From: Alphaproteobacteria bacterium
Lineage (GTDB): Bacteria; Pseudomonadota; Alphaproteobacteria; UBA828
DNA: 64,000 nucleotides
Assembly (NCBI GenBank): GCA_963667785.2
Contig: CAXXMU010000002.1
Span: forward strand, 864,001-928,000
Direction: 5' to 3'
The notes under the pieces are model-generated. The model saw nothing but the letters and a program-made list of their open reading frames with translations, was not told the origin of the DNA and ran no database searches. This document shows, in pieces, positions 17,067-42,226 of the stretch; within the stretch, counting starts at the first letter, position 1, and each line of letters begins with the position of its first letter. Position numbers and translations under genes: made by a program.

Positions 17067-17322
17067 TCTATCACAATAATGCATCTCCCCTGTAGTGTTG
17101 TCCAGAAACACTTGAGAAGTGTTATTCACATTCTCAGGGCAGCTAAGCGCGCGATTCAAGCATAAGCGAGCCCCTGCTCACTACAACACCGAATAATTCA
17201 GCTATTGCTTGCGGCTATCTGATGTACCCTAGCGTGCGCGAGAGCACCGCCAAGCTTTCCGGCCCTGTGCTATTGTCACCACACCGTTGGAGTGTGAGGC
17301 AGCGAAAGGAGCCGGCATCGCA

Positions 17323-22492: not shown

Positions 22493-22609
22493 ACCCGGCG
22501 ATACCCCTTCGCACCGGCTGACGGCCCGCCCTCGGGCCGCGGTCTCTTTCCCTCCGCCGGCTCGCCTGGGGCGTGTAGGATGCGCGCGCCCCCGGAGGGA
22601 GCGAGCGGC

Positions 22610-23950: not shown

Positions 23951-23960
23951 ACGCAGCAGG

Positions 23961-24012
23961 TAGAGAGAATGAATAATCGCTTATTATCTGCTAGCTATAC
24001 TATTTAGTTAAT
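23961..24012 (+). promoter_or_regulatory. AT-rich promoter/operator upstream of the enolase pair
   Basis: AATAA-TCGC-TTATT inverted repeat (23972-23985) and TATACT (23996-24001) in an otherwise GC-rich context. Confidence 0.5.
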
Positions 24013-24031
24013 CTCGCACGAGAAGCACCGG

Positions 24032-26304: not shown

Positions 26305-26566
26305 AGAGGTCGGCGTGAGAGCCGGTGCGGGCCAGCTGCAATTCGTCCCCCTTCACGCGGTAGATGAGGAGCCAGTCCGGCTCGAGATGAATTTCGCGGT
26401 ACTCGTGCCATTTTCCCCGCAGCGGATGATCGCGATACCGTGCGGGCAGGAGGTCCCGCCGCATGAGTGCCTCCAGCGGCGGCCGGAGCTTGGCGAGGTC
26501 CTTGCCCCGCCTCTTCGCCCGCTTTACGTCCCGCCTGAATTGCGTTGAGGTGACGGGGGTCAGCAC
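26294..26566 (-). CDS. yafQ: YafQ-family toxin (RelE superfamily mRNA interferase)
   Basis: FRRDVKRAKRRGKDL..YRDHPLRGKW..REIHLEPDWLLIY..ARTGSHADLF. Confidence 0.93.
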   Translation of the reverse strand: MLTPVTSTQFRRDVKRAKRRGKDLAKLRPPLEALMRRDLLPARYRDHPLRGKWHEYREIHLEPDWLLIYRVKGDELQLARTGSHADLFRK

Positions 26567-26567
26567 G

Positions 26568-26825
26568 TCAGGCGCCGATGTCCTCGAACAGGTCCGCGGC
26601 GCCGGTGTGGCGCTTGCCCTTGCCGTCGTCCAGCTCCTTCATCGCTTCCACGGTGGTGGCGTTCGGCACGTGAACGGCGAACGGCAGGCGCTTCTCGTCG
26701 GCCACCCGCAGCAGCAGCAGGCGGATCGCGTCGGATACCGTCAAGCCCATGGCGTGAAGGGCCTCGGTGGCGCGCGCCTTGGTATCGCTGTCGATGCGTG
26801 CCCGCACCACGGAATCGGCCGGCAT
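26568..26825 (-). CDS. dinJ: DinJ/RelB-family antitoxin
   Basis: VVRARID..K..A..L..MGLTVSDAIRLLL..LPF..PNATTVEAM. Confidence 0.92.
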   Translation of the reverse strand: MPADSVVRARIDSDTKARATEALHAMGLTVSDAIRLLLLRVADEKRLPFAVHVPNATTVEAMKELDDGKGKRHTGAADLFEDIGA

Positions 26826-27062: not shown

Positions 27063-28262
27063 ATGGCTGAGCACTGGTGGGAAAGCAGCGCGCAGGCGGC
27101 CGAAGCGCTTGCGCACGTCGTCCGCCCGATCGAGCAGGCGGGCGGCCTGCCCAACGAGGCCTACGTCTCGCACGCGTTCGCAGACTGGGAGCAGGACGTG
27201 CTGCTCGCCCGGAGCTGGGCCTGCATCGGCACCGGCAGGCGCGTGCCGGAGCCGGGCGATGCGCGACCGATCGAGTTCGCCGGCCTGCCGCTCCTCATGG
27301 TGCGCGGGAACGACGGCGCGGTGCGCGTCTTCCACAACGTCTGCAGCCACCGCGGCATGATCCTGGTGGACGAGCCCCAGCGGACGCGCGGCACCATCCG
27401 CTGCCCCTACCACTCGTGGACCTACGACCTGGACGGCTCGCTTCGCGCCACGCCGATGATCGGCGGCACCGACAGCCACACCTGCCCGAGCTTCGAGCGG
27501 GCACAGAACGGCCTCAAGCCGGTGCGGACGGCCACGTGGTTCGACGCCGTGTTCGTCAACCTGCGCGGGGACGCGGCGCCCTTCGAGACCTTCATCGCGC
27601 CGGTGGCCGAACGCTGGAAGGATTTCGACGCTGCCACGCTGCATCACGAGGCGCGCGATTCCTCCTACATCCTCGACGTCGCCTGCAACTGGAAGCTCGC
27701 GGTGGAGAACTTCTGCGAGGCCTACCACCTGCCCTGGATCCACCCCAACCTCAACAGCTACTCCCGGCTCGAGGACCACTACCAGATCACCGAGGAGGAG
27801 GACGGCTACGCCGGCCAGGGCAGCACCGCCTACCGGCCGCAGCTCGTGGAGAACGGCGACGCCTTCCCCGCCATGCCGGACCTGCCGGAACGCTGGCACG
27901 GCACGGCGGAATACGTGGCGCTGTTCCCGACCGCGCTGTTCGGCATCCACGCGGATCACTTCTACACGGTGACGCTGGAGCCGAAGGGCCCGGGCCGGAC
28001 CATCGAGCACATGGACATCTACTACTTCGCCGACGAGGCGCTGGACGAGGCCCACACCGAGCAGCGCCGGGCCAACGCCCGGCTCTGGCAGGGCATCTTC
28101 GAGGAGGACCGCTTCGTCGTCGAAGGCATGCAGCGCGGCCGCGCCTCGCCCGCCTATCGCGGCGGCGTGCTCTCGCCGGCGCTCGAGCGCACGACCCACT
28201 GCTTCTACCGCTGGGTGGCGACCCGGCTGCTGCAGGCGAGCCAGGCCAACCGCGCGGCCTGA
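27063..28262 (+). CDS. Rieske non-heme iron oxygenase alpha subunit (choline monooxygenase-like)
   Basis: CSHRG..CPYHSW Rieske motif, NWKLAVENFCEAYHLPWIHP, EED..VEGMQRG. Confidence 0.9.
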   Translation: MAEHWWESSAQAAEALAHVVRPIEQAGGLPNEAYVSHAFADWEQDVLLARSWACIGTGRRVPEPGDARPIEFAGLPLLMVRGNDGAVRVFHNVCSHRGMILVDEPQRTRGTIRCPYHSWTYDLDGSLRATPMIGGTDSHTCPSFERAQNGLKPVRTATWFDAVFVNLRGDAAPFETFIAPVAERWKDFDAATLHHEARDSSYILDVACNWKLAVENFCEAYHLPWIHPNLNSYSRLEDHYQITEEEDGYAGQGSTAYRPQLVENGDAFPAMPDLPERWHGTAEYVALFPTALFGIHADHFYTVTLEPKGPGRTIEHMDIYYFADEALDEAHTEQRRANARLWQGIFEEDRFVVEGMQRGRASPAYRGGVLSPALERTTHCFYRWVATRLLQASQANRAA

Positions 28263-28283
28263 GCGAGCGGCGGCGCGGCCGGA

Positions 28284-28598
28284 TCAGATCTCGCAGGCGT
28301 CGCCGTTGCAGCCCTGCTTGTCTCGCCCGAACAGAAGGCGAAGCGGGGGCAGGTAGAGGGCGAGGCCCAAGGGGACGTAGAGCGGCACCTGCAGGCAGAG
28401 CTTGCGCGTGGCAAAGACGCCGGTGAACGCCCTGCCGCTCCCCTTCTCGATCACCACGATCTCGCCGACGGGCACCGGGCCGAGCGGCGAGGCGTCCGTC
28501 CGCATCTCGATGTGGCCGAGCCAGTCCAGGCGCGCGGTCAGCTTCGCCTGTCGCACGCAGTCCGGGCAGCGCGGGTTGTAGTAGAGCGATACGCTCAT
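28284..28598 (-). CDS. DCC1-like thiol-disulfide oxidoreductase family protein
   Basis: YYNPRCPDC (CxxC), RLDW, C-terminal CNGDAC. Confidence 0.7.
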   Translation of the reverse strand: MSVSLYYNPRCPDCVRQAKLTARLDWLGHIEMRTDASPLGPVPVGEIVVIEKGSGRAFTGVFATRKLCLQVPLYVPLGLALYLPPLRLLFGRDKQGCNGDACEI

Positions 28599-28607
28599 CC
28601 CGTGCGC

Positions 28608-29414
28608 CTACGCTTCGGCACTCACCGGTGCGGTCCGCCCGTAGAAGCCGAGCCTCTCCGTCTCGCTGAAGACCACGTCGGGCGCCTCGTAGTAGGAGAA
28701 GACGGCGACGATGCGGGCGCGCGCGCCCTCGACCGGCGTGGTCCTATGCGCGGTGTTCTTCCCCTTGAAGACGTTGAGCGTGCCCGGGCTGAGCGGCATG
28801 GTCCGCACGTCGTCATCGTCGCCTGCGAGCAGCCGGGCGACGCCGCCATAGTTCGGGTCGATCTCGCTCCTCAGCCCGCTGCGGTACTGGAACGCGCCGC
28901 CCGCCGCGGGTGCCTGCAGGAGAATGGTGATGGTGAACTCGGCCCGGTCGAAGTGCCAGTTGAGGCGCTCGCCCGACCGGTAGGCCATGACGTTGAGGCG
29001 ACCGAGCGGGTCGGCCATGGGGTAGAGCCGGGGCTTCTCCAGCGTCGCCGCCAGGAAGTCGATGAGCGGCCGCCACTCGTAGATCCGCGCGATCGTGCTG
29101 GCCGGAATCTGGTCGCCGCAGATCGTGTGGTTGACGGTGGTGAAGCGGCCGAGCGCCGGGTGGCCGGGCGCGAGCCCCGCGATCTCGTCGTCGAAGTAGA
29201 TGTTGTGATCGCGGGCATGGGTGAAGGCGGCGGCCGCGAGAACCGGCTCGACCTCGGCGACGCAGGCCGCGAGCGCCTCGGGCCGGATGAGCCCGTCGAG
29301 GCTGAACATGCCGGCCTCGCGCAGCGCCTTCCGGCAGCGGGCGACGAGCGCCCGCGCCTGCGCGCCGCCCGGCGCGTCCACCGGCCAGCGGTCGAGATCG
29401 AGAACCCGCTCCAT
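28608..29414 (-). CDS. Fe(II)/2-oxoglutarate oxygenase of the BesD/ArpA-like family, hydroxylase-type
   Basis: HNIYF, LNWHFD (HxD), GGAFQY, PGTLNVFKG..HRTTPVEG..R; alternative GTG start at 29465. Confidence 0.8.
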   Translation of the reverse strand: MERVLDLDRWPVDAPGGAQARALVARCRKALREAGMFSLDGLIRPEALAACVAEVEPVLAAAAFTHARDHNIYFDDEIAGLAPGHPALGRFTTVNHTICGDQIPASTIARIYEWRPLIDFLAATLEKPRLYPMADPLGRLNVMAYRSGERLNWHFDRAEFTITILLQAPAAGGAFQYRSGLRSEIDPNYGGVARLLAGDDDDVRTMPLSPGTLNVFKGKNTAHRTTPVEGARARIVAVFSYYEAPDVVFSETERLGFYGRTAPVSAEA

Positions 29415-29455
29415 CGCCTGCGGCTGGCGCCGCGCGCCGGCGGGAGTCCCCTGCC

Positions 29456-30697
29456 CTACAGCCACTCCTCCTCCAGCGGATAGGAGGAGAGCTGCTCGTG
29501 GCCGTCAGCGGTGATCAGCACCTGCTCCTCAAGCTTGACCGATTCGCGGCCGCCGGCGGGCGAGGTCAGCGCCTCCACGCAGAGCACCATCCCCTCGCGC
29601 AGCACGGCGTCGTCGCCGGAGTCCTCGTCCTGCGGGTAGTGGATGACCGGATACTCGTCGCAGAGCCCCACCCCGTGCATCGCCGCCACGTAGCGCTGCT
29701 CGACGAACTCGTCGCCGAGGGGGCGCAGCCGCTCCGTCAGCTCGCGGAAGCCCACGCCCGGCTTCAGCAGCGCCTTGTTCTCCTGGATGTGCGCGTAGGC
29801 GTCGGCGTAGAGGCGCCGCTGCTCGTCGTCGGGCCGCGCGTCGCACACCCAGGTGCGCGAGATGTCGCAGCAATAGCCGTAGGGGCCCACGAGATCGGTG
29901 TCGAAGGCGACGATGTCGCCGCGCTCGATCGGCCGCAGCGAGGATTCGCGGAACCACGGGTTGGTGCGCGGCCCGGAGGCGAGCAGCCGGGTCTCGATCC
30001 ACTCGCCGCCGCCGGCGATGTTGCCGCGGTGGAGCTCGGCCCAGAGCGCGTTCTCGGTGATGCCGGGCACGAGCGCCGCCCGCATCTGCGCGATGGCCTG
30101 CTCGCACACGTGGATGGAATGACGCATCAGGGCGATCTCGCCGGCCGACTTGATGTTGCGGGCGTTCTCCATCACCTCGAAGCCGTCGAATATCTCGTAG
30201 CCCAGCCGCTGCATCTCGATGACGCCCTGCGGCGCGACCCGGTCGATGGCGATACGCCGGTTGCCGCCTGCGTCCGCCCGGATCACCGAGTCCAGATCGG
30301 CGGCCCAGGTCCTCGCCATCTCCGCGAGCTCCGTGCCGGCGATGAAGTAGAGGAAGGCGATGGCCGGGCGCACCTCGCCGATGGTGGGCAGGCCCTCGTT
30401 GATCAGCGTGCTGCCGCCGCCGAACTCGAAGAGGCGGACCGGCCCTTCCGTCGGCACGTAGAGGTAGCGCGACTCGTTGTGGGCGCACCAGATCTGCATG
30501 TTCGTCGCATCGCTGGCGTAGCGGATGTTCACCGGGTCGTAGAGGAGGATGCCGGCGAGGTCGCGCTCCGCCAGCGCCGCGCGCACGCGCGCGAGCCGGT
30601 AGCGCCGCACCGCGTCGAGATCGCACGGCGGGATGCTGTGCTCCATCGCGCCGTGCTGGCGCGGCGTGTTGGCCGTGTTGCCGCCTTCGCTATTCAT
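29456..30697 (-). CDS. M24 peptidase-fold protein, DddP (DMSP lyase)-like
   Basis: DPVNIRYASDATNMQIW, GGEWIETRLLASGPRTNPWF, FDTDL..DISRT, MHGVGLCDEYP, CVEA, KLEEQVL. Confidence 0.8.
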   Translation of the reverse strand: MNSEGGNTANTPRQHGAMEHSIPPCDLDAVRRYRLARVRAALAERDLAGILLYDPVNIRYASDATNMQIWCAHNESRYLYVPTEGPVRLFEFGGGSTLINEGLPTIGEVRPAIAFLYFIAGTELAEMARTWAADLDSVIRADAGGNRRIAIDRVAPQGVIEMQRLGYEIFDGFEVMENARNIKSAGEIALMRHSIHVCEQAIAQMRAALVPGITENALWAELHRGNIAGGGEWIETRLLASGPRTNPWFRESSLRPIERGDIVAFDTDLVGPYGYCCDISRTWVCDARPDDEQRRLYADAYAHIQENKALLKPGVGFRELTERLRPLGDEFVEQRYVAAMHGVGLCDEYPVIHYPQDEDSGDDAVLREGMVLCVEALTSPAGGRESVKLEEQVLITADGHEQLSSYPLEEEWL

Positions 30698-30758
30698 CAA
30701 GTCCCTCCGCGACGAAATAGCAGATCGCGCCGTCGATTCTGGTCACGCCCCACGGGCC

Positions 30759-31967
30759 TCAGACCTCCCTGCCGAGCAGCCGCTCGTCGAAGGGAAACGT
30801 GCTCATGGTCTCGATACCCGTCTCGGTCACCAGCACCTGCTCCTCGAGCTTCACCCCCTCGCCGCCGTCCTCGTGGCCGATGAAGCTCTCGATGCAGAGC
30901 GTCATGTCGGGCTCGACGATGCCGTCATAGTCCCGCCCGGAGTCGTAGTCGGCCTCGTAGACGATATAGGGATACTCGCCCGTGGCGCCGATGCCGTGGA
31001 TCATCAGGTAGTAGCGGCGCGCGTAGTAGGGGGCGGGGATCGTCCACGCCGCCTCCGTGATCTCCCGGAACGTCCGCCCCGGCCGGATCAGGTCCATGTT
31101 GTGGTGGATCTGCTCGTGGGCGAGGCGGTAGAGCGTCGTCTGTGCGGCGCTCGGCCGGCCGTCGCCGCAGAGGAAGGTCCGCGAGAAGTCCGCGTAGTAG
31201 CCGTGCGGGCCGACGACGTCGGTATCGTGGGCGACCAGCTCGCCGGCGCGGATCACGCGCTCGCCGCTTTCCTGGAACCAGGGGTTGGTCCGCTCGCCCG
31301 AGCTGAGCAGCCGCGTCTCCACATAGTCAGCGCCGTCCGCGATCAGATGGCGATGGAACTCCGCCCAGAGCGCGTTCTCGCTGATGCCGGGCCTGACGGC
31401 GTCCTGCAACGCCCGCTCCGCCGCCATGACGCAGGCCATCGAGCGCTTCGAGCAGGCGATCTCCTCGGGCGTCTTGATCGCCCGCGCCCTCTCGGCCGGC
31501 GCCTGGGCGTCGAGGACGGCGAAGCCCCGGTCCGCCAGATGGTTGGCGGCGCGCACGTCGATACGCTCCAGGCCGATCCGGGTCTCGCCCGGACAGTGGC
31601 GGCGCATGAGCGCGGCGATCTCGTCGGCCCAGGCCCGCGCCGTCTCGTCCAGGAGCGGCCCGCGCGCCACGTAGGAGACCGTGGTCGAGACGCGGATCTC
31701 GTCGATCGCCGGGTTGTCCCGCTCCATGTGCTCGCAGCCTGCGAACTCGAACAGCACGACCGGGCCCTCGACGGGCACGAACACGTAGCGCGCCGGATTG
31801 CGCAGGAGGAAGGGCAGCATGTTCCGCGCGCCGGTGGCGTAGCGCACGTTGTGCGGGTCGGTCAGCACCAGGGCCGCCACGTCGAAGCGCGCCATCTCCG
31901 CCCGCAGCCGCGCCAGCCGGCCGAGGCGCAGGGCGGTCTCGTCGGGCGCCGGCGGCACCGGGCTCAT
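30759..31967 (-). CDS. M24 peptidase-fold protein, DddP-like paralogue
   Basis: DPHNVRYAT, ETRLLSSGERTNPWFQE, HDTDV..DFSRT, IHGIGATGEYP, CIES, KLEEQVL. Confidence 0.8.
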   Translation of the reverse strand: MSPVPPAPDETALRLGRLARLRAEMARFDVAALVLTDPHNVRYATGARNMLPFLLRNPARYVFVPVEGPVVLFEFAGCEHMERDNPAIDEIRVSTTVSYVARGPLLDETARAWADEIAALMRRHCPGETRIGLERIDVRAANHLADRGFAVLDAQAPAERARAIKTPEEIACSKRSMACVMAAERALQDAVRPGISENALWAEFHRHLIADGADYVETRLLSSGERTNPWFQESGERVIRAGELVAHDTDVVGPHGYYADFSRTFLCGDGRPSAAQTTLYRLAHEQIHHNMDLIRPGRTFREITEAAWTIPAPYYARRYYLMIHGIGATGEYPYIVYEADYDSGRDYDGIVEPDMTLCIESFIGHEDGGEGVKLEEQVLVTETGIETMSTFPFDERLLGREV

Positions 31968-31971
31968 GGAC

Positions 31972-34080
31972 TCACTCGGCGGCGTGGATTTCCCGGTCGG
32001 GGATGGTGATCACGGGCTCGACCTCGCGCAGCTCCTCGAGCGGGATGTGGCAGGCGATGACGTGGCGCTCGGCGTTGGTCCTGACCGGCGGCGGCTCCTC
32101 CTCGCAGATGGCGCCGAGCTTGCGCGGACAGCGGGTCGAGAACGGGCACCCCTTGGGCGGATCGAGCGGGCTCGGCAGCGTGCCTTCCAGGACGATGCGG
32201 CGCTTCTCCACCTCGGGGTCCGCGATGGGGACGGCGGAGAGCAACGCCTCGGTATAGGGATGGTAGGGCGGCGCGAAGACCTCCTCCGTCGAGCCGCGCT
32301 CCATGATCTGCCCGAGATACATCACCACCACCCGGTCGGCGAGATAGCGCACCGCCGAGAGATCGTGGCTGATGAAGAGCAGCGTGGTGCGGTGCTCGCG
32401 CTGAATGTCCATCAGCAGCTCCGTCACCGCAGCGGCGACCGAGACGTCGAGCGCCGAGATCGGCTCGTCGGCGATCACCGTCTTGGGATTGCCGGCGAAG
32501 GCGCGGGCGATGCCCACCCGCTGCTTCTGCCCGCCGGAGAGCTGCCGGGGCTTGCGCGAGACGAAGGCGCGCGGCAGCTTCACCGTGTCCAGCAGCTCGT
32601 TGACGCGCTCCTTCCGCTTGGCGGAATCGCGCTCGATGCCGAAACGCTTGATGACCCGGCCGATCTGGTAGCCGACCGAGTGCGACGGGTTGAGGGTGTC
32701 GTTCGGGTTCTGGAACACCATCTGCAGCGAGGCGAGCTGCGCCGCCGAGCGCTTGTTGACCGGGACGCCGCCGAGATCGGTCCCGTCGAGCACGACCTCG
32801 CCGTCAGTCGCGGTCTCCAGCCCCATCAGCACCTTGGCGAAGGTGGACTTGCCGCAGCCGGATTCGCCCACGATGGCGACCGTCTCGCTCTCACCTGCGC
32901 GGAAGCTGATGCTCTCGTTCGCCTTGACCTGGCGCACCGCACCGCCGGAGACCAGCGCCGCCAGCGAGCGGTCGCGCACCTTGTAGTACTTGCGCATGTT
33001 CGCGACCTGGAGGACGGTCTCGCCGACCTCGATGGGCTCGCGGCTTTCCTCGACCCGCACCGCCTCGGTGACGTCGATCCCCTCCCAGCGCAGGCAGCGG
33101 ACCCGATGCGCCGGATCGTCGTCGGTATGCACGCCTTCCATCGGGATCAGGCCCTTGTCGCACCTCCCCTCCTCGAAGAACACGCAGCGCGGCCCGAAGT
33201 TGCAGCCCTCGGGCCGCTCGTGGGGAAGCGGAAGCTGGCCCTTGATCGAGACCAGCGGGCGCGCGTTCTTGTCGGCATGGGGCAGCGGGATGCAGCCGAA
33301 GAGCCCCTGCGTGTAGGGATGCTTGGGCCAGGAGAAGATCGAATCGATCGTCCCCTCCTCCACCACCTCGCCCGAGTACATCACGCAGATGCGGTCGCAG
33401 ACCTCCAGCATCAGGCCGAGATTGTGAGAGATGTAGAGCAGCGACGAGCCGGTCTTGCGGCTGAGCTCGGCGATCAGCTCGACGATGCCGGCCTCCACCG
33501 TCACGTCGAGCGCCGTCGTCGGCTCGTCGAGCAGCAGGAGCGCCGGCTGCGAGAGCAGCGCCATGGCGATCACCACCCGCTGCTGCTGGCCGCCGGAGAC
33601 CTGGTGCGGATAGGAGATCATCAGGCGCTTCGGGTCCGGGATGTGGACAGCCGACAGCATGTCGTGGGCGCGCTCGAAGGCTTCGGCCCGGCTCACGCCC
33701 TCATGGATGATCGGCACCTCCATGAGCTGCTGGCCGATGGTCAGGCTCGGATTGAGCGAGGCCATCGGCTCCTGGTAGATCATGGCGATGTCCTTGCCGC
33801 GCACGCGGCGAATCTCCTCCTCGGACATCTCGGCCATGTCGCGGCCCTTGAAGCGGATGGTGCCGCCGACGATGTCGCCGTTGTGCCCCATGTAGCGCAT
33901 GATGCCGTTGGCCACGGTGGACTTGCCGCAGCCGGATTCACCCACGAGGCCGACCGATTCGCCCTTCGCCACGGTGAGGTCGAAGTCGTAGACCGCCGGC
34001 ACCTCGCCGGCGCGGGTGTAGTAGCTGAGGCAGAGCCCCGTGATCTCGAGGACCGGCGGCTCAGCGCTGTGATCGTTCAT
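31972..34080 (-). CDS. Dipeptide/oligopeptide-type ABC transporter, fused double ATPase
   Basis: Two [13 protein letters not shown] signatures, HPYT, CxFxxRC. Confidence 0.93.
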
Positions 34081-34090
34081 TCCGCGCCTC

Positions 34091-34996
34091 CTAGTCCTTG
34101 AGCGATACTTCGCGCAGCCCGTCGGCCAGCAGGTTGAAGCCGAGCACCAGCAGCGAGACCGCGCAGGCGGGCAGGATCGCCATGTGGGGGAAGCCGCCGG
34201 AGACGAAGGCGCGGGTCTCGGTGATCATCCCGCCCCAGTCCGGGTCGGGCGGCGGCAGGCCGAGGCCGAGGAAGCCGAGCGCGCCGATGGTGATCGTCGT
34301 GTAGCCCATGCGCAGGCAGAAATCGACGATCAGCGGCCCGCGCGCGTTGGGCAGGATCTCCATCAGCATGATGTACCAGGGCCCCTCGCCCCTGGTCTGG
34401 GCGGCGGCGATGTAGTCGCGGGTCGCGATGTCCATCGTCACGCCGCGCACGATGCGCATGATGCCGGGCGAGGAGGCGAAGACGACCGCGAAGATGATGT
34501 TGATCCCGGACGCGCCGACCTTCGCGATGATCAGCACGTAGAGCACCATGATCGGGAAGGAGAGAATCACGTTGGCGACGAAGGAGAGGATCTCGTCCAG
34601 GTAGCCCCGGAAGTAGCCGGCTGCCAGGCCCATGAGGATGCCCACAACGTAGGCGCAGGCCGTCGCCGCGGTGGCGTAGAAGAGCACCCGCTGGCCGCCG
34701 AAGATGATCCGGGACAGGATGTCGCGGCCGAGATGGTCGGTGCCGAGCAGGAACACGCCGCCGTCCGGCGCGTCTGCGCCGGGGAAGGCGAAGGGCACCA
34801 TCGTCGCGTTGGGGTCGAAGGGCGCGATGAACTCGGCGAAGATCGCGAGGATCACGAAGCCGAGGACGATGCCGGCGCCCACCATGCCGACCGGGCTCTC
34901 CCTCAGCAACGCGACCGGCTTGAGGGACGCGGCGAAGCTCGCGCCGAGCCTGGCGAGCGGCGTGCTGGGGGCTCCCATGCGCGGCACGTCGCTCAT
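34091..34996 (-). CDS. ABC transporter permease (DppC-like)
   Basis: LLGTDHLGRDILSRII, ILPN, LGFLGLGLPPPDPDWG. Confidence 0.92.
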   Translation of the reverse strand: MSDVPRMGAPSTPLARLGASFAASLKPVALLRESPVGMVGAGIVLGFVILAIFAEFIAPFDPNATMVPFAFPGADAPDGGVFLLGTDHLGRDILSRIIFGGQRVLFYATAATACAYVVGILMGLAAGYFRGYLDEILSFVANVILSFPIMVLYVLIIAKVGASGINIIFAVVFASSPGIMRIVRGVTMDIATRDYIAAAQTRGEGPWYIMLMEILPNARGPLIVDFCLRMGYTTITIGALGFLGLGLPPPDPDWGGMITETRAFVSGGFPHMAILPACAVSLLVLGFNLLADGLREVSLKD

Positions 34997-35925
34997 TTGA
35001 ACCTGATCCTCGGGTTCAGATAGGTGTAGCCGAGGTCGCCGACTGTCTGCGTGAAGACCGCGACGAAGACCGCCGCCGTGCCGCAGGCCTCGATGACGAA
35101 GATGTCGCGCCGGAGCGCCGCCTCCAGCAGCAGCGCGCCGAAGCCCTTGTAGCCGAACGCGAACTCGGTCACGACCACGCCCGACAGCAGCCAATTGATC
35201 TGCAGCATGATCACGGTGAACGGCGCGATCAGCGCGTTGCGGAGCGCGTGCTTCAGGATGATGCGCCGGTAGGGCAGGCCCTTGAGCACGGCCGTGCGTA
35301 TGTAGGGCGTGGTCATCACCTCGGCCATCGAGGCGCGCGTCATGCGCGCGATGTAGCCGAAGCCGTAGAGCACCAGCACCAGCACCGGCAGGATCATCTG
35401 GACCGGGTCGAAGCCCGAGGTCATCGACGAGGTGCCCGGCAGGATGCCCAGCCAGAAGACGAAGATGCCGACCAGGAACACCGCGCTGGCGTATTCCGGG
35501 ATCGAGGTGGTGATGATCGAGAAGACCGAGATCGACCGGTCCTGCAGCGATCCCTCCTTCATGCCCGCCAGCACGCCGAGGGTGAGCGCGATCACGACCA
35601 TGATGACGAAGGTGACGCCGGCGAGGATGCCGGTGTTGCCGAGGCGGTCCCAGAAGATCTCGTTAACGGGCCGCTTGTAGATGACCGAGTAGCCGAGGTC
35701 GCCGGCGAATATTCGGCCTATCCATTCGAAGTAGCGAACGATGACCGAGCGGTCGTAGCCGTTCTCGATCACCCAGGCGTTGAGCTGCTCGGGCTGCGCG
35801 TAGGGCCCGAGAACGCTGCGGGCGACCAGCGTCGGGTCGCCCTCGTTGATGAGGAAGAGCAGCAGCGCGACGACCAGCAGGATGAGGATCATCATGCCGA
35901 TGCGCCGGATGATCAGCTGGACCAT
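34993..35925 (-). CDS. ABC transporter permease (DppB-like)
   Basis: GDLGYS, RMTRASM..YIRTA.LKG, HALRNAL, LNPRIR. Confidence 0.93.
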   Translation of the reverse strand: MVQLIIRRIGMMILILLVVALLLFLINEGDPTLVARSVLGPYAQPEQLNAWVIENGYDRSVIVRYFEWIGRIFAGDLGYSVIYKRPVNEIFWDRLGNTGILAGVTFVIMVVIALTLGVLAGMKEGSLQDRSISVFSIITTSIPEYASAVFLVGIFVFWLGILPGTSSMTSGFDPVQMILPVLVLVLYGFGYIARMTRASMAEVMTTPYIRTAVLKGLPYRRIILKHALRNALIAPFTVIMLQINWLLSGVVVTEFAFGYKGFGALLLEAALRRDIFVIEACGTAAVFVAVFTQTVGDLGYTYLNPRIRFK

Positions 35926-36032
35926 GTCAGGCTCCAGCCGTCAAGCGAAGACGCGCGGGACAGGCTCGTCCCGCGCCGGCGATAAGGGGGAACGTGGCGC
36001 GGGAGCCCGGAGACCCCCGCGCCGCTCGTCGC

Positions 36033-37754
36033 TCAAGCGTCGTCCAGCCACACTTCGTGGAACTGGTGATACAAGGTCGGGTGGACCTTCAGGCCCTTCA
36101 CCTTCTTGTTCGCCGCCTTGTACACCGAGCGCCAGAAGGGCTGCGGGATGATCGCGTCGTCCTGCAGGATCTTCTGGCAGACCGCCATCTTCTTCTTGCG
36201 CTCGTTGACGTCGAACGTGCCGTCGGCATCGTCGAGCGCCGCATCGAAGGCCGGGTTGTCGTAGGCGCACTCGTTCCACGGCACGCCGGCCCGGTAGGCG
36301 AGGCCGAGCACCATGGTGCCGAGCGGGCGGTGCGTCCACGCCGTGTAGCCCCACGGCGCCTTGTCCCAGACCTCCCAGTACTGGTTGGCCGGCATCTTGT
36401 TGATGTCGATGTTGATGCCGGCAGGCGCCGCCTGGTTCTTGAAGATCGCGCAGGCGTCGGTCATCCACGGGCCCTCGGTGTCGCCGTTGGCGATCTCGAT
36501 GGTGATCCCGTCGGGATAGCCGGCCTCGGCGAGCAGCGCCTTCGCCTTCTCGATGTCCCGCTTGAGCGGCGGCAGTTCCGCGTACTCGGGATGGATCGGG
36601 CAGACGTGGTGGTTCTCGGCGACCTGGCCGCGCCCCTGGAAGGATTTTTCCAGCAGCTCCGCGTGGTCCATGCAGGCCGCCACCGCCTGGCGCAGCTTGA
36701 GATTGTCGAACGGCGCCTCGGTGACCCGGAAGCGCATGACTGCGGTCTGCGCCGTCGTCACCGAGTGGATGTCCACGAAGGGCAGCGCCGCCACCGCCTC
36801 GTGGGCGTCGCTGGGCAGGCGGTAGATCATGTCCACCTGCTGCGAGGCGAGCGCCGCGACCCAGGCGTTGGTGTCCTCGCCGTGGTCGTAGTAGTGGATC
36901 TCGTCCAGGTAGAAGGGGCCGGCCCACCAGTCCCGCGCCTTCTTGAGGATGGCGGCCTCGCCCACGTCGTTCCGGACCAGCTCGAACGGGCCGGTGCCGA
37001 TCGGGTTCGAGGCGAGATCGGCCTCGTAGTCCACGCCGAAGCCCCGGTGCACGATGGCGGTCGGATAGTTGTAGAACTTCTCCGGCATCGCCAGGTCGGG
37101 CTGCTTCAGGTTGAACTGGATGGTGTGATCGTCGATCACCTCGATGGCGTTGGGAATGCCCCGCTTCACGCCGTCCGCATCGGCCTCGACCATGGCCCCG
37201 AAGAGCCCGAGGTTCGACGAGCCGACGGCCGGGTCGAGCCAGCGGCTCACCGTGTGGGCGACGTCGGCCGCGGTGAAGGCGTCGCCGTTCGACCAGGTGA
37301 CGCCCTGGCGCAGATGGAAGACCCAGGTCGACAAGTCGTCGGACGCCTCCCACTTCTCGGCGAGGTAGGGGACCGTGATGTTGTCCGACCGGGTCCTGGA
37401 CAGGTGCTCCACCATGAAGCGCGCGACGTTCGACCTCTCGACCCAGTCGAAGATGGCCGGGTCGTCCATCGCCTGCACCCGCTGGGAGACCTTGAGCACG
37501 CCGCCCATCTTGGGCTCACCGGCGCTGGCGGAACGGATCACGTCACCGCCGGGCATGCCGGCCATGGCATAGGCCGTGCCGGCGGCCACGCCGAGCAGCG
37601 TCGCCTGGCGCAGGAAGTCGCGCCGGCTGATCTTGCCCGTCTGCAACTGGTCGCAGAGCTCCGGCATGTAGGAATGTGTCTCCGCGCCCAACGCGCGTTC
37701 CGACGGCAGCGTGTAGCGCCGCGGATCACGGCTCAGCACTTTCTTGTCACTCAT
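36033..37754 (-). CDS. ABC transporter solute-binding protein family 5, Tat signal
   Basis: SRRDFLR, LAEKWEASDD, PIGTGPF, PFDN..RQA, AKALLAEAGYPDG. Confidence 0.92.
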   Translation of the reverse strand: MSDKKVLSRDPRRYTLPSERALGAETHSYMPELCDQLQTGKISRRDFLRQATLLGVAAGTAYAMAGMPGGDVIRSASAGEPKMGGVLKVSQRVQAMDDPAIFDWVERSNVARFMVEHLSRTRSDNITVPYLAEKWEASDDLSTWVFHLRQGVTWSNGDAFTAADVAHTVSRWLDPAVGSSNLGLFGAMVEADADGVKRGIPNAIEVIDDHTIQFNLKQPDLAMPEKFYNYPTAIVHRGFGVDYEADLASNPIGTGPFELVRNDVGEAAILKKARDWWAGPFYLDEIHYYDHGEDTNAWVAALASQQVDMIYRLPSDAHEAVAALPFVDIHSVTTAQTAVMRFRVTEAPFDNLKLRQAVAACMDHAELLEKSFQGRGQVAENHHVCPIHPEYAELPPLKRDIEKAKALLAEAGYPDGITIEIANGDTEGPWMTDACAIFKNQAAPAGINIDINKMPANQYWEVWDKAPWGYTAWTHRPLGTMVLGLAYRAGVPWNECAYDNPAFDAALDDADGTFDVNERKKKMAVCQKILQDDAIIPQPFWRSVYKAANKKVKGLKVHPTLYHQFHEVWLDDA

Positions 37755-38005
37755 AGACGTAACCCTCCTTCGTGTGATTCGCGTCGACGGTGCCGAGGCT
37801 AGACGGCGCCGGCGAGCCGGCATTGGAAGACGTGCCTTGGTCCCGTTCCGCCTGCCTGTCACCAGTCCGGTTGGAACCAAGCCTAGCCCAAAGCGGAGCC
37901 TCTGTCGCCCCGCCAAACATCTCGGAAAACGCAAAAAACCTCCCCGCAGTTCGATCTGTCAGCGAACCGGACGCGGCATCGTCATGTTTTCGCATGCCAA
38001 TGACC

Positions 38006-40504
38006 TCAGTCGCGCATGCGGCCGCCATTGGGATCGTAGAGCGGCGTGGTCTCGACCCGTGCCGGGAACATCTCGCCCAGGATCTCGATATCGAAGCGCT
38101 CGTCGGTCGCCGCGATCGCCGTCGGCACGTAGCCCAGCGCCATCGACTGCCCCACGTGGTGCGCGTATCCGCCGGAGCAGACATAGCCCACCGCCGCGCC
38201 GTCTCTCAGGATCGCCTCGTCGTTGGAGACGTCGATGGGCGCGCCGTCGATCTCCGGCGCATCGATGACCAGCGGCACCAGGCGCTTCGCAGGCCCCGAC
38301 CGGCGCTCTGCGTCCGCCGCCGCCTTGCCGACGAACTCCTTGTCCCACTGGATGAAGGCGTCGAGCCCGCTTTCCGCCGCCGTGAAGTCCGGCCGGTAGT
38401 CGAGCGTCCAGACGCCCCAGGCCTTCTCCAGCCGGAGCGACATCAGCGCCCGCGCACCGTACCAGCAGAGGCCGAGATCGGCGCCGGCGGCCTCGATCGC
38501 CTCCGCGAGCGCGATCTGGAACTGGGGTGCGACGTAGATCTCGTAGCCGAGCTCGCCCGAGAAGCTGAGCCGCGAGACGATGGCCGGGACGCCGCCGACG
38601 AAGCACCGCCGGATGTCGCGGAAGCGGAATGCGTCCGCCGACACGTCGTCGCGGGTGATGCGTGCGAGCAGCGCGCGCGAGCGCGGGCCGGAGAGGGCGA
38701 TGCCGTGCAGCGCGTCGGAGAGGTTGCGGTAGTCGACGCCCGTGCCGAGGCGCTGCACGAACCAGCGCCGGTGCGCCTCCTGCATCGCGCCCGAACCCAC
38801 CACCAGGAAGTCGTCCTCGGCGAGGCAGGCGACGGTCAGGTCGCCGTAGAGCTTGCCCTTCTCCGTCAGCATCGGCGCGAGCGCGAGACGGCCGGGCCCC
38901 GGTACGCGGCCGGCCAGCACGCGATCCAGGAAGGTGCGGGCGCCGGGGCCGGTGAACCCGTGCTTGGAGTAGTTGGCGATCTCGATGCAGCCCACGGCCT
39001 CGCGCACCGCCTTCACCTCGCGCGCGACATAGTCGTGCGCCCGGGAGCGGCGGAAGGACGGGTCCTCGTGGGCGTCCTCGGGCCCGTCGGCGAACCAGAG
39101 CGCGTGCTCCAGCCCGAAGCCCTGGTCCATCACCGCGCCCTTCGCCACCAGCCGGTCGTGGAGCGCGGTGGTCTTCTGGCGCCGGCCCTTCGGCAGGGTC
39201 TCGTTGGGGAAGGTCATCACGAAGCGGCGCTCGTAGTTCTCAGACGACTTGACCGTGCCCCAGTCGGGCGTCGCGAACTCGCCGAAGCGGGCGATGTCCA
39301 TGGCCCACACGTCGATCGAGGGCTCGCCGTCGATCATCCACTCGGCGATGCTGCGCCCCACGCCGCCGCCCTGGCAGAAGCCCGCCATCACGCCCACCGC
39401 CACCCAGTAGTTCCTGACCCCCGGCACCGGGCCGATCATGGGGTTGCCGTCGGGGCCGAAGGTGAAGGGGCCGTTGATGACGTCCTTGATCCCGGCGTCG
39501 GCGATGGCGGGGATCCGCTCGAAGGACATCTCCAGCCGGTCGGCGATGCGGTCGAGATCGGGCTGCAGCAGCTCCTGGCCGAAGTCGAGCGGCGTGCCGG
39601 CGACGTTCCAGGGCGTTGACTTCGGCTCGTAGGTTCCGAGCAGAACTCCTTGACGCTCCTGGCGAAAATAGATGTTGGCCTCGTAGTCGATGCCGCCCGG
39701 CAGGCGGCCGGCGCCGCCCTCGCCCATCCGCTCGACGATGACGGGGATCGGCTCGGTGATGAGGTAGTGGTGCTCCATCGGCTGGACCGGGAGCTCGATG
39801 CCCGCCAGCCGCCCGACCTCGCGCGCCCAGAGCCCGCCGCAGTTCACGACCTGCTCGGCGTTCACCGTGCCGCGCGGCGTCACCACGTCCCACGTGCCGT
39901 CGGAGCGCTGACTGGTCTCGACCACCGGCGTCTGCGTGAAGTACTGCGCGCCGTGAACGCGGGCCGACTTGGCGAAGGCGTAGGTCGCGCCGGAGGGGTC
40001 GAGGTCGCCGTCGAGCTCGTCCCAGAGCGCCGCGTAGTAGTGCTTCGGGTCGATGAGCGGATGGCGCTCGGCGACCTCGGCAGGCGAGATGAACTCCTGG
40101 TCGAGCCCCATGTAGCGGGCCTTGGAGCGCTCGCGCTTCAGGTAGTCGTACCAGTCCCGCGTCGACGCGAGATAGAAGCCGCCGGTCCTGTTCAGCCCGA
40201 CCGATTGCCCGGAGGTCTCCTCGATCTCCTCGTAGAGGTTGATCGTGTAGCCCTGCAGGCGGGAGATGTTGGGGTCCGACGAGAGCGTGTGGATCATCCC
40301 GGCCGCGTGCCATGACGAGCCGGCGGTGAGCTGGTCCCGCTCCAGCAGGATCACGTCCTTCCAGCCGAACTTCGCGAGGTGGAACAGGATCGAGCAGCCG
40401 ACCACGCCGCCGCCGATGACGACCACCCTGGCATGGCGGGGAAGCGGCTTGCCGGCGTCTCCGGCGCTCTCGTCTCGCCGAATCTCAGGCATCGCGGCAC
40501 TCAC
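38006..40504 (-). CDS. GcvT-family dimethylglycine/sarcosine dehydrogenase-like protein
   Basis: VVIGGGVVG, LTAGSSWHAAG (covalent-FAD His), NGPFTFGPDG, folate domain SFSGELGYEI..SLRLEK, YDP. Confidence 0.92.
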   Translation of the reverse strand: MSAAMPEIRRDESAGDAGKPLPRHARVVVIGGGVVGCSILFHLAKFGWKDVILLERDQLTAGSSWHAAGMIHTLSSDPNISRLQGYTINLYEEIEETSGQSVGLNRTGGFYLASTRDWYDYLKRERSKARYMGLDQEFISPAEVAERHPLIDPKHYYAALWDELDGDLDPSGATYAFAKSARVHGAQYFTQTPVVETSQRSDGTWDVVTPRGTVNAEQVVNCGGLWAREVGRLAGIELPVQPMEHHYLITEPIPVIVERMGEGGAGRLPGGIDYEANIYFRQERQGVLLGTYEPKSTPWNVAGTPLDFGQELLQPDLDRIADRLEMSFERIPAIADAGIKDVINGPFTFGPDGNPMIGPVPGVRNYWVAVGVMAGFCQGGGVGRSIAEWMIDGEPSIDVWAMDIARFGEFATPDWGTVKSSENYERRFVMTFPNETLPKGRRQKTTALHDRLVAKGAVMDQGFGLEHALWFADGPEDAHEDPSFRRSRAHDYVAREVKAVREAVGCIEIANYSKHGFTGPGARTFLDRVLAGRVPGPGRLALAPMLTEKGKLYGDLTVACLAEDDFLVVGSGAMQEAHRRWFVQRLGTGVDYRNLSDALHGIALSGPRSRALLARITRDDVSADAFRFRDIRRCFVGGVPAIVSRLSFSGELGYEIYVAPQFQIALAEAIEAAGADLGLCWYGARALMSLRLEKAWGVWTLDYRPDFTAAESGLDAFIQWDKEFVGKAAADAERRSGPAKRLVPLVIDAPEIDGAPIDVSNDEAILRDGAAVGYVCSGGYAHHVGQSMALGYVPTAIAATDERFDIEILGEMFPARVETTPLYDPNGGRMRD

Positions 40505-40612: not shown

Positions 40613-42226
40613 TCACCCATTCGGCCCGCCGCCGCCGGCGCGCCAATAGGGGGTGGCCGCGGCGAAGGCGTGCCAGTCCTCCGCGATCCTGGCGCGGACC
40701 TCCTCGCGGGCGCGGGCATGCCAGCCCATCACCTGGCCGGCGCCGATCCCGAGCGCGACGCGATCCTCGCTGTCGCGATGGGCGTGGAGCAGCTCCCGCA
40801 GGCGGCGCTCCGCCACCACCGCGTCGTTGAGGTGGCCGAGCCCGTCCTGCAGCCGCCGCGCCGCCCTGATGAAGGGGCGGGGCTTGCTCTCTGGGAACTG
40901 CGCGGCGAAGAACTCGCCCGCGTAGCGCAGTTTCTTGAGCGTGATCCTGAGCCGGTGGAGGCGGTCGTCGGAGAGTCGCTCGAAGTTGCGCCCGCGCTTG
41001 AGCACCCGCGCGTGCCGCTTGTCGAGCAGGCGTCCGGCGAGGCCCGCGAGCGGCCGGTCGAGCGCGGCCTCGTCCGCGCCGATCCGCCAGCCGGCGGTCT
41101 CGATCCAGCGGCTGAAGCTGAGCAGGAACGACGTGTATGCGGGCGCACGCAGCGCCTCCGCCTGCTCGTAGGCCCGGGCGCGCTCCGTCTCGGCAGCGGC
41201 GGCGAGCCGGTCGAGAGCGTCGTCACCGGGCCGGGCCGCGCGGACGGCCGGCAGCGTCTCGATGATGAACACGTCCCAGTCGCGGGCCGGGCCGAGCAGG
41301 TCGATGAGGCGGCTCGCCTCGCGCTCGATCCAGGCGGTATCGCCCGGCGGCAGCACGGTCTTGAACGCCGAGATGGCCGAGCGCAGCCGGCGCAGGGCGA
41401 CGCGGAACTGGTGCACGCCCTCGGGATCGCTGTGGTCCAGCACCGCGTCGTGGTTCGCGGCGCAGTGGCTCGCGCAGGCGCGGAAGATCGCGGCGAGCGC
41501 GTCCTCCACGGATATCCCCGGCGCCAGTGCGAGCGCCGGCGCCTTGCAGCCGGCATAGCCCTCGCCGCCCGCCAGCACGTAGCCGCGCTTCGCCTTGCTC
41601 GCGGTCTGAATGCGAAGCGGCGCGGAGGCGTGCAGCGTCATGGCGAGCTCGTAGAGCGCGCTCGCCGGGCCCTCGATCAGCTCGAGCTCCAGCTCGGAGA
41701 TGGTGTCGTGCCGGTTCCGCGCCCTGATCTCGCCGCTGTCGAGCGCGAGCTCGACCAGCGCGGTGCCGCGACCCGGCGCGGCGACCTCGACCATGGCGGT
41801 GCGCCGCATCACGTCCGTGGAAAAGGCCGGCGTGAGCTCGGTCGACCGGAGCGGCCCCACCGCGGCGCGCACCGCCGGATCCTGCACGACGGGCAGGCGC
41901 GGTGTCGTCCCCTCGACGGGGCACGACCATTCGTTGCGCCTGAGCACGGCGCCGGCGTCCGACGGCCCCTCCGACTTGAGCGTCTGCACCAGCCGCTCCC
42001 CGTCCTCGCGGATGCGCAGCGTGAAGCCGCGCCGGCGCAGGCGGAAGTCGCCGGTATCGTAGTAGGTGCTGCGCAGCCGCTGCGCGCGCTCGTGCCCGCC
42101 CGCGGGAACCGCGGCGCGCCAGCCGCGGTCGAGGGCGGCGGGATCGCCGCCCAGCGTCAGCTCGACCTCGAGCGCGTGTCCGCTCTCTGCGGCGGCGGTC
42201 TCGGCCCCGCCGTCTTTCTCTCCCAT
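40613..42226 (-). CDS. CYTH + CHAD domain protein (inorganic triphosphatase-like)
   Basis: EVEL, YYDT..LRIR..QTLK, ELELEL, SKAKRGY; CHAD VHQFRVALRRLRS, HRLRI..KKLRY, LQDGLG.LND. Confidence 0.92.
   Translation of the reverse strand: MGEKDGGAETAAAESGHALEVELTLGGDPAALDRGWRAAVPAGGHERAQRLRSTYYDTGDFRLRRRGFTLRIREDGERLVQTLKSEGPSDAGAVLRRNEWSCPVEGTTPRLPVVQDPAVRAAVGPLRSTELTPAFSTDVMRRTAMVEVAAPGRGTALVELALDSGEIRARNRHDTISELELELIEGPASALYELAMTLHASAPLRIQTASKAKRGYVLAGGEGYAGCKAPALALAPGISVEDALAAIFRACASHCAANHDAVLDHSDPEGVHQFRVALRRLRSAISAFKTVLPPGDTAWIEREASRLIDLLGPARDWDVFIIETLPAVRAARPGDDALDRLAAAAETERARAYEQAEALRAPAYTSFLLSFSRWIETAGWRIGADEAALDRPLAGLAGRLLDKRHARVLKRGRNFERLSDDRLHRLRITLKKLRYAGEFFAAQFPESKPRPFIRAARRLQDGLGHLNDAVVAERRLRELLHAHRDSEDRVALGIGAGQVMGWHARAREEVRARIAEDWHAFAAATPYWRAGGGGPNG

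Follow-up and report, generated by a model that had tools for sequence, protein, structure and literature searches.

The closest described relatives of the M24-family enzymes considered here are the DddP-type lyases of dimethylsulfoniopropionate (DMSP). In ocean surveys, dddP is the most abundant DMSP-lyase gene, amounting to ~65% of the ddd genes (PMC10686828), and the enzyme is reported to act poorly on DMSP, for which its Km is 13.8 mM (PMC4108388). DddP binds metal through Asp295, Asp297, Asp307, His371, Glu406 and Glu421, its Tyr366 and Asp377 are invariant, Asp377 being the favoured catalytic base, and residues 10-50 form an N-terminal loop-helix extension (PMC4108388). A second described context is provided by the marine glycine-betaine clusters, in which, according to the accessible part of the source, the MtgB system (MtgBCD) is often co-located with genes of the later demethylation steps, those of dimethylglycine and sarcosine (PMC12478193). 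Here we consider a locus that touches both contexts. It lies in a stretch of 64,000 nucleotides (nt) from Alphaproteobacteria bacterium (GTDB UBA828; GCA_963667785.2, CAXXMU010000002.1, positions 864,001-928,000 of the forward strand), which is referred to below as the window, and it consists of one minus-strand run of genes for a dimethylglycine dehydrogenase-like (DMGDH-like) flavoenzyme, a Dpp-type importer with a substrate-binding protein (SBP), two DddP-related proteins of the M24 family (M24_1 and M24_2), a HalD/BesD-type hydroxylase and a small CxxC protein. We tentatively read this run, with a probability of roughly 0.45, as an accessory operon that serves the import and catabolism of an N-methylated, amino-acid-like zwitterion of the betaine/onium type, rather than as a classical DMSP-lyase locus or a dipeptide system. 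An osmolyte catabolic operon is in itself of a known kind; it is the combination of enzymes, together with the M24 subfamily marked by a glycine at position 377, that represents new variants.

The first issue is the identity of the two M24 proteins, which the first-pass annotation of this DNA had called DddP-like. This assignment holds at the level of the family: against the DddP reference model (NCBIfam NF043017, an equivalog model with a curated cut-off of 600 bits) the scores are 429.2 bits for M24_1 and 329 bits for M24_2, whereas the prolidase/creatinase and prolidase/aminopeptidase models of NCBIfam reach at most 54 and 57 bits, respectively, on either protein. Likewise, the best solved relative of M24_1 is RlDddP (4rzy, E 4.5e-100) and that of M24_2 is RdDddP (4b28, E 3.8e-79), as compared to E values of 1e-15 or weaker for the solved prolidases, aminopeptidase P, creatinase and ectoine hydrolase, so that neither protein looks like an ordinary prolidase or creatinase. 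Both scores, however, are under the equivalog cut-off. In both proteins, the hidden Markov model match to DddP begins only at profile position 48-49 of 443, and residue 27 of M24_1 aligns with residue 51 of RlDddP; hence, the loop-helix extension of DddP is unmatched in M24_1 and M24_2. In a tree of the family, built without the confirmed fungal DddPs and the DddP2 of O. doudoroffii, the six proteins that exceed the cut-off fall into a 15-row clade (SH-aLRT 98), M24_1 belongs to a separate 45-row clade (SH-aLRT 100), and M24_2 is outside both. Judged by score and by clade placement, then, neither M24 protein is an orthologous DddP, and a reading of the pair as DddP proper could not be sustained.

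The catalytic residues tell the two proteins apart. Alignment to the solved structures and inspection of the signature columns show that all six metal ligands of DddP are kept in both. M24_1 has the signature DDDYHDEE, that is, all eight catalytic residues of DddP, as do all 83 rows outside the M24_2 group in the tree of 90 rows. The signature of M24_2 is DDDYHGEE, with Tyr366 kept and glycine in the position of the proposed base, and in the tree that includes added loci from other genomes this Gly377 state makes up one 10-row clade (SH-aLRT 100). Comparison of conserved columns points in the same direction: the M24_1 clade and the true-DddP clade have 98 conserved columns in common and differ at 12, none of which lies in the catalytic motifs, and there are 23 columns, 346-348 (LCD replaced by ATG) among them, at which M24_2 departs from a conservation common to the two clades. 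Given the near-identical core and the full set of eight residues, M24_1 probably performs DddP-like chemistry. For M24_2, something other than DddP-like chemistry is probable: the proposed base is lost, and members of its clade stand without an Asp377-type (D-type) partner elsewhere (L099, L100, L101, L108, L124, L125, L148 and L149), which weakens the reading of M24_2 as a DddP-type lyase.

Relatives of M24_1 were found at 58 loci in a scan of species-representative genomes, mostly metagenome-assembled genomes (MAGs) of marine proteobacteria, and in a sample of 401 genomes of the class, 77 carry a DddP-like gene (E up to 1e-60), with six passing the curated cut-off. Neighbours were counted within 6 kb of 89 DddP-like loci outside the window's own clade, using tblastn against a reference set and Pfam. 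MttB occurs at 15 of these loci, PhyH at 22, homocysteine S-methyltransferase at 17 and a HalD-like gene at five; TMADH-like and Rieske genes occur at four each, FMO at three, a GlxA-type AraC regulator at two and a Tdm-like gene at one. None of these neighbours was seen at the five loci that have an over-cut-off DddP and ~8 kb of flank on each side (L119, L120, L121, L127 and L128). One of the two MttB copies of G382 is directly beside the M24 gene, and L131 combines MttB and a DMGDH-like gene near an M24_1-type gene with a corrinoid protein and a RACo activase. Clusters that resemble the window's occur independently in L138, L116 and L100. The cluster of L138 comprises a homocysteine methyltransferase, an M24 enzyme, a family-5 SBP (45% identity), a HalD-like enzyme, DppDF and DMGDH (52%), and that of L116 comprises PhyH, DppDFCB, a family-5 SBP, M24, a BetI-type TetR regulator, a TMADH-like enzyme and MttB; GlxA/AraC regulators are found in L040 and L118. 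Thus, the link to methylated onium compounds that had been proposed from the window alone is supported by the survey, with DMGDH-like, MttB, homocysteine methyltransferase, TMADH-like and Tdm-like genes, GlxA and BetI regulators, and 2-oxoglutarate (2OG) oxygenases recurring near the relatives. The substrates then named (gonyol, trimethyllysine, a DMSP analogue) are another matter, as no evidence favours any of them.

Nevertheless, it has to be considered whether M24_1 is, after all, a divergent but genuine lyase of DMSP, or of dimethylsulfoxonium propionate (DMSOP), in which case the operon would be an osmolyte island that combines DMSP cleavage with unrelated genes of betaine demethylation and transport. 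The complete set of eight catalytic residues and the likeness of the conserved core to over-cut-off DddPs are in line with this possibility, as are the activity of a symbiont DddP at 55% identity (PMC10989825), the cleavage of DMSOP by all known DMSP lyases (PMC10686828) and the presence, close to some of the relatives, of acyl-CoA and enoyl-CoA genes that might process acrylate (L021 has MaoC; L107 and L118 have ECH and AMP-binding genes). Nonetheless, it appears rather unlikely, considering the score under the equivalog cut-off, the unmatched extension and the separate, well-supported clade of M24_1. Furthermore, the methylamine and hydroxylase neighbours of the M24_1-type loci are lacking at all five true-DddP loci, the clustering of as many as five paralogues in 20 kb of one genome (L096) argues for several substrates, and the tight link with DMGDH-like, MttB and HalD-like genes would not be explained by release of dimethyl sulfide.

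The best solved relative of the DMGDH-like enzyme is the human mitochondrial dimethylglycine dehydrogenase (5l46, E 1.6e-168, over residues 24-823), and it possesses all four Pfam domains, including the folate-binding GcvT part, of the dimethylglycine/sarcosine dehydrogenase architecture. In L023, L035, L040, L054, L056, L102, L107, L131, L132 and L138, an M24 gene has an adjacent DMGDH-like gene with 50-54% identity to that of the window, a closer likeness than that of the four other paralogues in the window's own genome (35-39%). The genome itself (4.09 Mb in 14 contigs) has no DddP-like genes other than this M24 pair and is rich in methylamine genes, namely, five DMGDH-like, 13 TMADH/OYE-like, about ten Rieske, two MttB, one Tdm-like and one FMO; for such an organism, the operon points to a host- or plankton-derived nitrogen compound as food.

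The hydroxylase is placed in the HalD/BesD family by Pfam (PF23169, 48.2 bits against a cut-off of 26) and matches halogenase B among the solved structures (7u6i, E 9.7e-5). The iron triad H-x-D...H (WHFD...HR) is kept in all 13 aligned rows, including that of the window's protein, which indicates a HalD-like enzyme of the hydroxylase rather than the halogenase type; the homologues are mostly 263-276 residues long and unnamed. HalD-like genes are found at 68 places in 49 of the 401 genomes of the class, and at 10 of these places, in nine of the 49 genomes and seven GTDB families, the gene is co-directional with and directly beside a DddP-like gene (G000, G191, G147, G129, G340, G039 twice, G386, G344 and G270); in G381 and G043, the two are within 7 kb. 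Among the fetched loci, the M24 partner is of the Gly377 type in L099, L100, L148 and L149, has asparagine at both 377 and 366 in L150, and is of the Asp type in L103, L138, L151 and L008; a LysR regulator flanks six of the HalD-M24 loci. L100 is a cluster of an amidase, a HalD-like enzyme, a Gly-type M24 and a family-5 SBP (57% identity). The closest outside orthologues of the window's hydroxylase (G006 and G369, 72-74% identity) carry an internal stop, the orthologue beside the M24_1-type gene in L008 is truncated, the adjacent M24_1 gene of L151 is broken into two parts, and transposase genes occur around L151 and L155, so that the HalD-M24 module appears to be mobile and often decaying. 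Two modules that are repeatedly found apart in other genomes appear to be combined in the operon: a Gly377-type M24 with a HalD-like hydroxylase, sometimes accompanied by this SBP, and an M24_1-type enzyme with a DMGDH-like demethylase. The small CxxC protein, with CPDC at residues 11-14, is present only in the seven in-clade loci; it scores 23.6 bits on PF04134, under the gathering score of 27.8, and its resemblance to Atlas clusters named DCC1-like (scores 0.90-0.94) is a lead only.

The importer bears on the ligand class. At residues 102-121 of its longest reading frame, the SBP carries a Tat signal recognised by TIGR01409 (22 bits; cut-off 16.7). It has 8upi and 5u4o as its best solved relatives (E 1e-38 and 2e-36) and scores 105 bits on the DppA equivalog model, whose cut-off is 1005. 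Asp408 and Arg355 of mature E. coli DppA, which we take to be the anchors for the amino and carboxyl ends of the peptide, correspond, in an alignment at ~25% identity, to Trp in all 19 SBP rows, including the window's, and to Gly or a variable residue, respectively. The loss of both anchors argues against classical dipeptide binding, in keeping with the non-dipeptide role suggested at first, without by itself pointing to an onium ligand. The more specific proposal, that the importer was repurposed for an onium compound, is weakened: orthologues of the SBP (E up to 1e-80) occur in 83 of the 401 class genomes, and most of the importer orthologues fetched lie in unrelated contexts. An SBP orthologue abuts a DddP-like gene in G039, G129 and G283 and is at most 7 kb from one in G234, G384 and G166; in G104 and G267, it abuts a HalD-like gene without an M24 gene. 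DppB is 92-95% identical among the in-clade loci and 55-82% identical in the fetched transporter orthologues.

The peptide alternative deserves attention beyond the SBP. Prolidases, whose fold is that of the M24 enzymes, cut bonds to an N-alkylated nitrogen, and one can envisage Dpp-type import of small peptides with N-alkylated or hydroxylated residues (Xaa-Pro- or Xaa-Sar-like), their cleavage by the M24 proteins as peptidases, and action of the hydroxylase and the DMGDH-like enzyme on the released amino acids, with demethylation of the N-methyl ones. Such a modified-peptide system would be compatible with the best scores of the transporter proteins, which are on dipeptide, oligopeptide and nickel models of NCBIfam, with the retention of all metal ligands and the loss of the lyase base in Gly377-type enzymes, and with the genes for an M19 dipeptidase, an amidase and a CN-hydrolase near HalD-M24 pairs, as well as a plus-strand amidohydrolase near the operon that matches an 'Xaa-Pro dipeptidase' model (212 bits, cut-off 500). 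The Trp and Gly at the anchor positions of the SBP, the prolidase and aminopeptidase scores of no more than 57 bits against 329-429 for DddP, and the retention of the DddP residue Tyr366 in both M24 proteins make it unlikely.

Creatinase, too, belongs to the M24 family, and the sarcosine that it yields is a substrate for oxidation by enzymes of the DAO-GcvT build. By analogy, the operon could serve the catabolism of a guanidino compound, with an M24 amidinohydrolase yielding urea and an N-methyl amino acid that is then demethylated by the DMGDH-like enzyme, and with the hydroxylase acting on a basic, arginine-like side chain. In L113 and L154, genes of the ADI/DDAH/amidinotransferase superfamily do lie on the flanks of a DddP-like or HalD-like gene, and the HalD-family enzymes with solved structures use lysine and ornithine as substrates (PMC10041140). 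In L113 (G006:C1:2185000-2203000), the surroundings of a DddP-like gene include three genes of the ADI/DDAH superfamily together with genes for an NMT1-type binding protein, an ABC permease and a Rieske protein, which hints at methylated-arginine or guanidino substrates for that particular subfamily. For the operon of the window, such a course seems very unlikely: the creatinase matches are weak (E 3e-7 to 7.6e-5), Pfam reveals no urease or urea-related gene in the operon, and to our knowledge creatinase makes no use of the metal site, which both M24 proteins keep.

Taken together, the protein families, their catalytic signatures, the tight packing of the genes and the repeated partnerships observed here favour the betaine/onium reading, in which the following course can be envisaged. 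The Tat-exported SBP, DppBC and the fused ATPase would import the compound, and the HalD-type Fe(II)/2OG enzyme would hydroxylate one of its sp3 carbons. The two DddP-family binuclear-metal enzymes would then cleave it: M24_1, with the DddP base kept, would most likely carry out a DddP-like beta-elimination on a carboxylate with an onium leaving group, and M24_2 would most likely catalyse a different step, possibly a hydrolytic one, alone or as a heterodimer with M24_1. Finally, the DMGDH-like flavoenzyme, judging from its domain architecture, would move N-methyl groups onto tetrahydrofolate. The initial interpretation of the locus is thereby retained in part: the DddP-family M24 enzymes and the methyl-onium neighbours stand, and the onium importer, the membership of a nearby Rieske gene (see below) and the named substrates are weakened or find no support.

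Several observations weigh against the betaine/onium reading and keep its probability where we have set it. The whole operon is limited to seven closely related MAG loci (L002, L003, L005, L010, L013, L038 and L001, the last cut at its end), whose proteins are 72-95% identical, so that synteny among them is little informative; none of the three genomes of the window's own family in the class sample carries a DddP-like gene, and L010, which is otherwise syntenic, keeps the operon without the DMGDH-like gene. Outside the clade, 40 of the 89 loci are without any counted neighbour, and many of the positive ones, notably those with PhyH or the homocysteine methyltransferase, are close kin, with the result that the counts overstate independence. 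The conserved core of M24_1 is nearly the same as that of true DddPs, which leaves DMSP itself a conceivable substrate, and functional DddPs span 32-77% identity (PMC4108388). The neighbours of HalD-M24 pairs elsewhere (amidase, M19 dipeptidase, CN-hydrolase and ADI-like genes) fit amide or guanidino substrates as well as betaines, and most of the fetched importer orthologues, at 51-82% identity and with the same four-gene layout, belong to unrelated contexts. In the operon itself, Pfam finds no regulator gene, and a riboswitch scan gave no match at E up to 0.1.

With respect to the possible association of the two M24 proteins, a predicted M24_1-M24_2 complex scored 0.92 in all three runs, as compared to 0.00 for the best control, with at least 84% contact agreement and a partner pLDDT of at least 91; the mark of 0.92 is reached by 58 of 80 solved complexes and by two of 110 mismatched pairs. 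A prediction of this kind does not separate a heterodimer from two homodimers, and as a DddP homodimer has already been solved, the pass may reflect likeness to it; a heterodimer is, accordingly, structurally plausible in the model. An obligate heterodimer with M24_2 as a dead subunit was considered and dropped as the main interpretation, since Gly377-type genes stand without a D-type partner elsewhere.

The arrangement of the locus is summarized below. Pfam and NCBIfam confirm every gene of the run on the strand on which it had been annotated. The window has a GC content of ~70%, within 27-40.5 kb a third-position GC filter singles out a coding frame for each gene, and the GC3 values of all ten genes are 0.90-0.95. 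Three starts differ from those of the longest reading frames: that of the SBP is, by its ribosome-binding site, the ATG at 37754, preceded by AGGAGG; that of DppC is the ATG at 34996, which overlaps the dppB stop; and that of the hydroxylase is the ATG at 29414, which gives a length like that of its homologues. The corrected SBP start widens the gap between the DMGDH-like and SBP genes to ~250 nt from 71 nt, so the tight packing described originally (gaps under about 110 nt) applies to the remaining intergenic gaps (4-107 nt) and not to this one.

Features of the operon and its immediate surroundings (positions in the window)
Feature	Position	Strand	Supporting evidence or remark
CYTH-CHAD protein	40613-42226	-	Directly upstream of the operon
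DMGDH-like flavoenzyme, 832 aa	38006-40504	-	Pfam DAO 231 bits, FAO_M, GCV_T 179 bits, GCV_T_C
Tat-exported family-5 SBP	36033-37754 (longest ORF to 37934)	-	SBP_bac_5 253 bits
Rfam Cis52 small RNA match, antisense to dppB	35238-35409	+	RF02647 73.7 bits against a gathering score of 56, E 1.6e-12
DppB-type permease	34993-35925	-	BPD_transp_1 and BPD_transp_1_N
DppC-type permease	34091-34996 (longest ORF to 35194)	-	BPD_transp_1 and OppC_N
Fused DppD/DppF ATPase, 702 aa	31972-34080	-	Two ABC_tran and two oligo_HPY; DppD/DppF NCBIfam models, one per half
M24_2, DddP-family, Gly377 subfamily, 402 aa	30759-31967	-	Peptidase_M24 and Creatinase_N; best NCBIfam model DddP
M24_1, DddP-family, complete catalytic signature, 414 aa	29456-30700	-	Peptidase_M24 and Creatinase_N; best NCBIfam model DddP
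HalD/BesD-family Fe(II)/2OG hydroxylase, 268 aa	28608-29414 (longest ORF to 29465)	-	PF23169
Small CxxC protein, 104 aa, candidate DCC1-like thiol-disulfide oxidoreductase	28284-28598	-	CPDC motif; sub-threshold PF04134
Rieske oxygenase alpha subunit	27063-28262	+	Rieske and Ring_hydroxyl_A; converges on the minus-strand run
aa, amino acids; ORF, open reading frame.

A promoter scan yielded no promoter-like site, and a terminator scan yielded one terminator-like site, with 4.1 expected. Two RNA libraries share small fractions of sequence words with the DNA (0.08 and 0.05), and one library contains 45 pieces with a likeness of at least 99%, one of which, 231 nt long, matches 36240-36470 exactly. 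The organism is represented in a library labelled as a sponge metatranscriptome. These matches were set aside as evidence of expression: they come from assembled contigs with possible DNA carry-over and demonstrate neither transcription nor an operon transcript. The Cis52 match recalls cis52 of Ruegeria pomeroyi, which is antisense to SPO1658, a permease gene of an oligo/dipeptide ABC transporter (PMC4809877, Table 1); it may merely reflect conserved coding sequence and not an RNA gene. As for functional data on the R. pomeroyi genes SPO1655-1660, a literature search that did not extend to supplements returned only the small-RNA paper.

The Rieske gene that converges on the run, which had been counted as part of the system, is probably the last gene of the neighbouring plus-strand operon. 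In L010, it runs in the same direction as, and without a break from, two enolase-superfamily genes and an FAD oxidoreductase gene; in the window, enolase-superfamily and FAD oxidoreductase genes are upstream on the plus strand, with a RelBE pair between them and the Rieske gene. In view of the contiguity in L010, we assign the gene to that operon, which may nonetheless be related in function to the minus-strand run. Its best solved relative is the carnitine monooxygenase CntA (6y8j, E 1.9e-37), it scores only 130 bits on the GbcA model NF058607, far under the cut-off of 670, and it is one of ~10 such paralogues in the genome, none of which passes the cut-off, no place exceeding 138 bits. A second Rieske alpha-subunit gene of the window (52355-53845, plus strand) is closest to the benzoate 1,2-dioxygenase BenA, with 240 bits against a cut-off of 781.

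Several further observations concern the flanks. The toxin-antitoxin pair consists of a RelE/YafQ-type toxin gene (26294-26566) and a RelB antitoxin gene (26568-26825), on the minus strand, and is absent from this place in L010. The gene group at 18790-26304, which is possibly related in function, includes an OYE/FadH-like FMN and FAD enzyme (minus strand), the above-mentioned amidohydrolase of the plus-strand cluster, a PF12831 FAD oxidoreductase and a pair of enolase-superfamily genes; the list of longest reading frames had missed the second of this pair (~25159-26304, plus strand). On the other side, the CYTH-CHAD gene abuts the SBP gene in L010. Farther away, the GC content falls to 0.568 at 16001-18000, as compared to ~0.70 elsewhere in the window, and an acyl-CoA dehydrogenase gene begins at 17233.

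In the open-access literature, searched without supplements or subscription journals, we found no paper that assigns a function to sub-threshold or non-canonical DddP-like proteins, no description of the HalD-M24 gene pairing and, as the first-pass annotation had anticipated, no described pathway with this gene set. The DddP-like genes that miss the cut-off belong to clades whose neighbours are genes for nitrogen-osmolyte demethylation and for 2OG hydroxylases, and one such clade is devoid of the proposed base; this has a bearing on the thresholding of environmental dddP counts. M24_1, the Gly377 type, the HalD-like partner and a single SBP make a concrete enzyme set for testing the roles of other family members, so that the long-doubted primary role of the DddP family becomes directly testable. 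Further paralogy is seen in L096 (G103:C2:628000-647999), where the five DddP-like genes in 20 kb, one of them with Asn377, have MttB, an enolase-superfamily gene and a LysR regulator among them. A bolder conjecture, in our view rather doubtful, is that most of the 'DddP family' are not DMSP lyases, and that two of its subfamilies cleave nitrogen osmolytes in an undescribed route: a HalD-type hydroxylase would activate an imported amino-acid betaine, which the Gly377- and Asp377-type M24 enzymes would degrade to glycine betaine or dimethylglycine, the alternative products being a methylamine and an unsaturated acid, and thereby feed the DMGDH, MtgB or Bhmt routes of demethylation. If the nitrogen-osmolyte reading is true, the 'dddP' counts of ocean metagenomes in part count nitrogen-osmolyte genes.

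How, then, does the locus compare with the described systems? With the DddP DMSP lyases (RdDddP, 4B28; RlDddP, 4RZY/4S01) both M24 proteins have the fold and the two-domain build in common, along with the six ligands and Tyr366, and M24_1 also has Asp377; a DddP-like dimer interface is predicted for the M24_1-M24_2 pair. The differences lie in the sub-cut-off scores, the unmatched extension, the separate clades, the Gly377 of M24_2 and gene neighbours other than those of the five true-DddP loci. The MtgBCD glycine-betaine clusters are resembled by the M24_1-type loci of other lineages, where a DMGDH-like gene and a member of the MttB/MtgB family lie beside the M24 gene and where the set of L131 matches; the operon of the window, however, is without MttB, and the accessible part of the MtgB paper mentions no M24 or DddP-like gene (PMC12478193). 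Creatine catabolism, with creatinase and sarcosine dehydrogenase or oxidase, offers the same coupling of an M24 enzyme to an N-demethylase of the DAO-GcvT type, and a GlxA-type AraC regulator is found beside relatives, whereas the similarity to creatinase itself is weak and the window's M24 proteins keep the metal ligands. E. coli DppABCDF is alike in its five-part architecture and in the families involved, and differs in that the window's ATPases are fused, the SBP is Tat-exported, and Trp and Gly occupy the positions of Asp408 and Arg355. Finally, the window's hydroxylase shares the Pfam HalD family with the BesD/HalB/HalD halogenases and lysine hydroxylases, and its alignment to HalB and the lysine hydroxylases spans the 2OG core, albeit at E values of 1e-4 to 0.02 and with an uncertain fit in the loop of the carboxylate-binding Arg83 of HalB; it has H-x-D, as in hydroxylases, and not the H-x-G/A of halogenases, and its setting is catabolic rather than biosynthetic.

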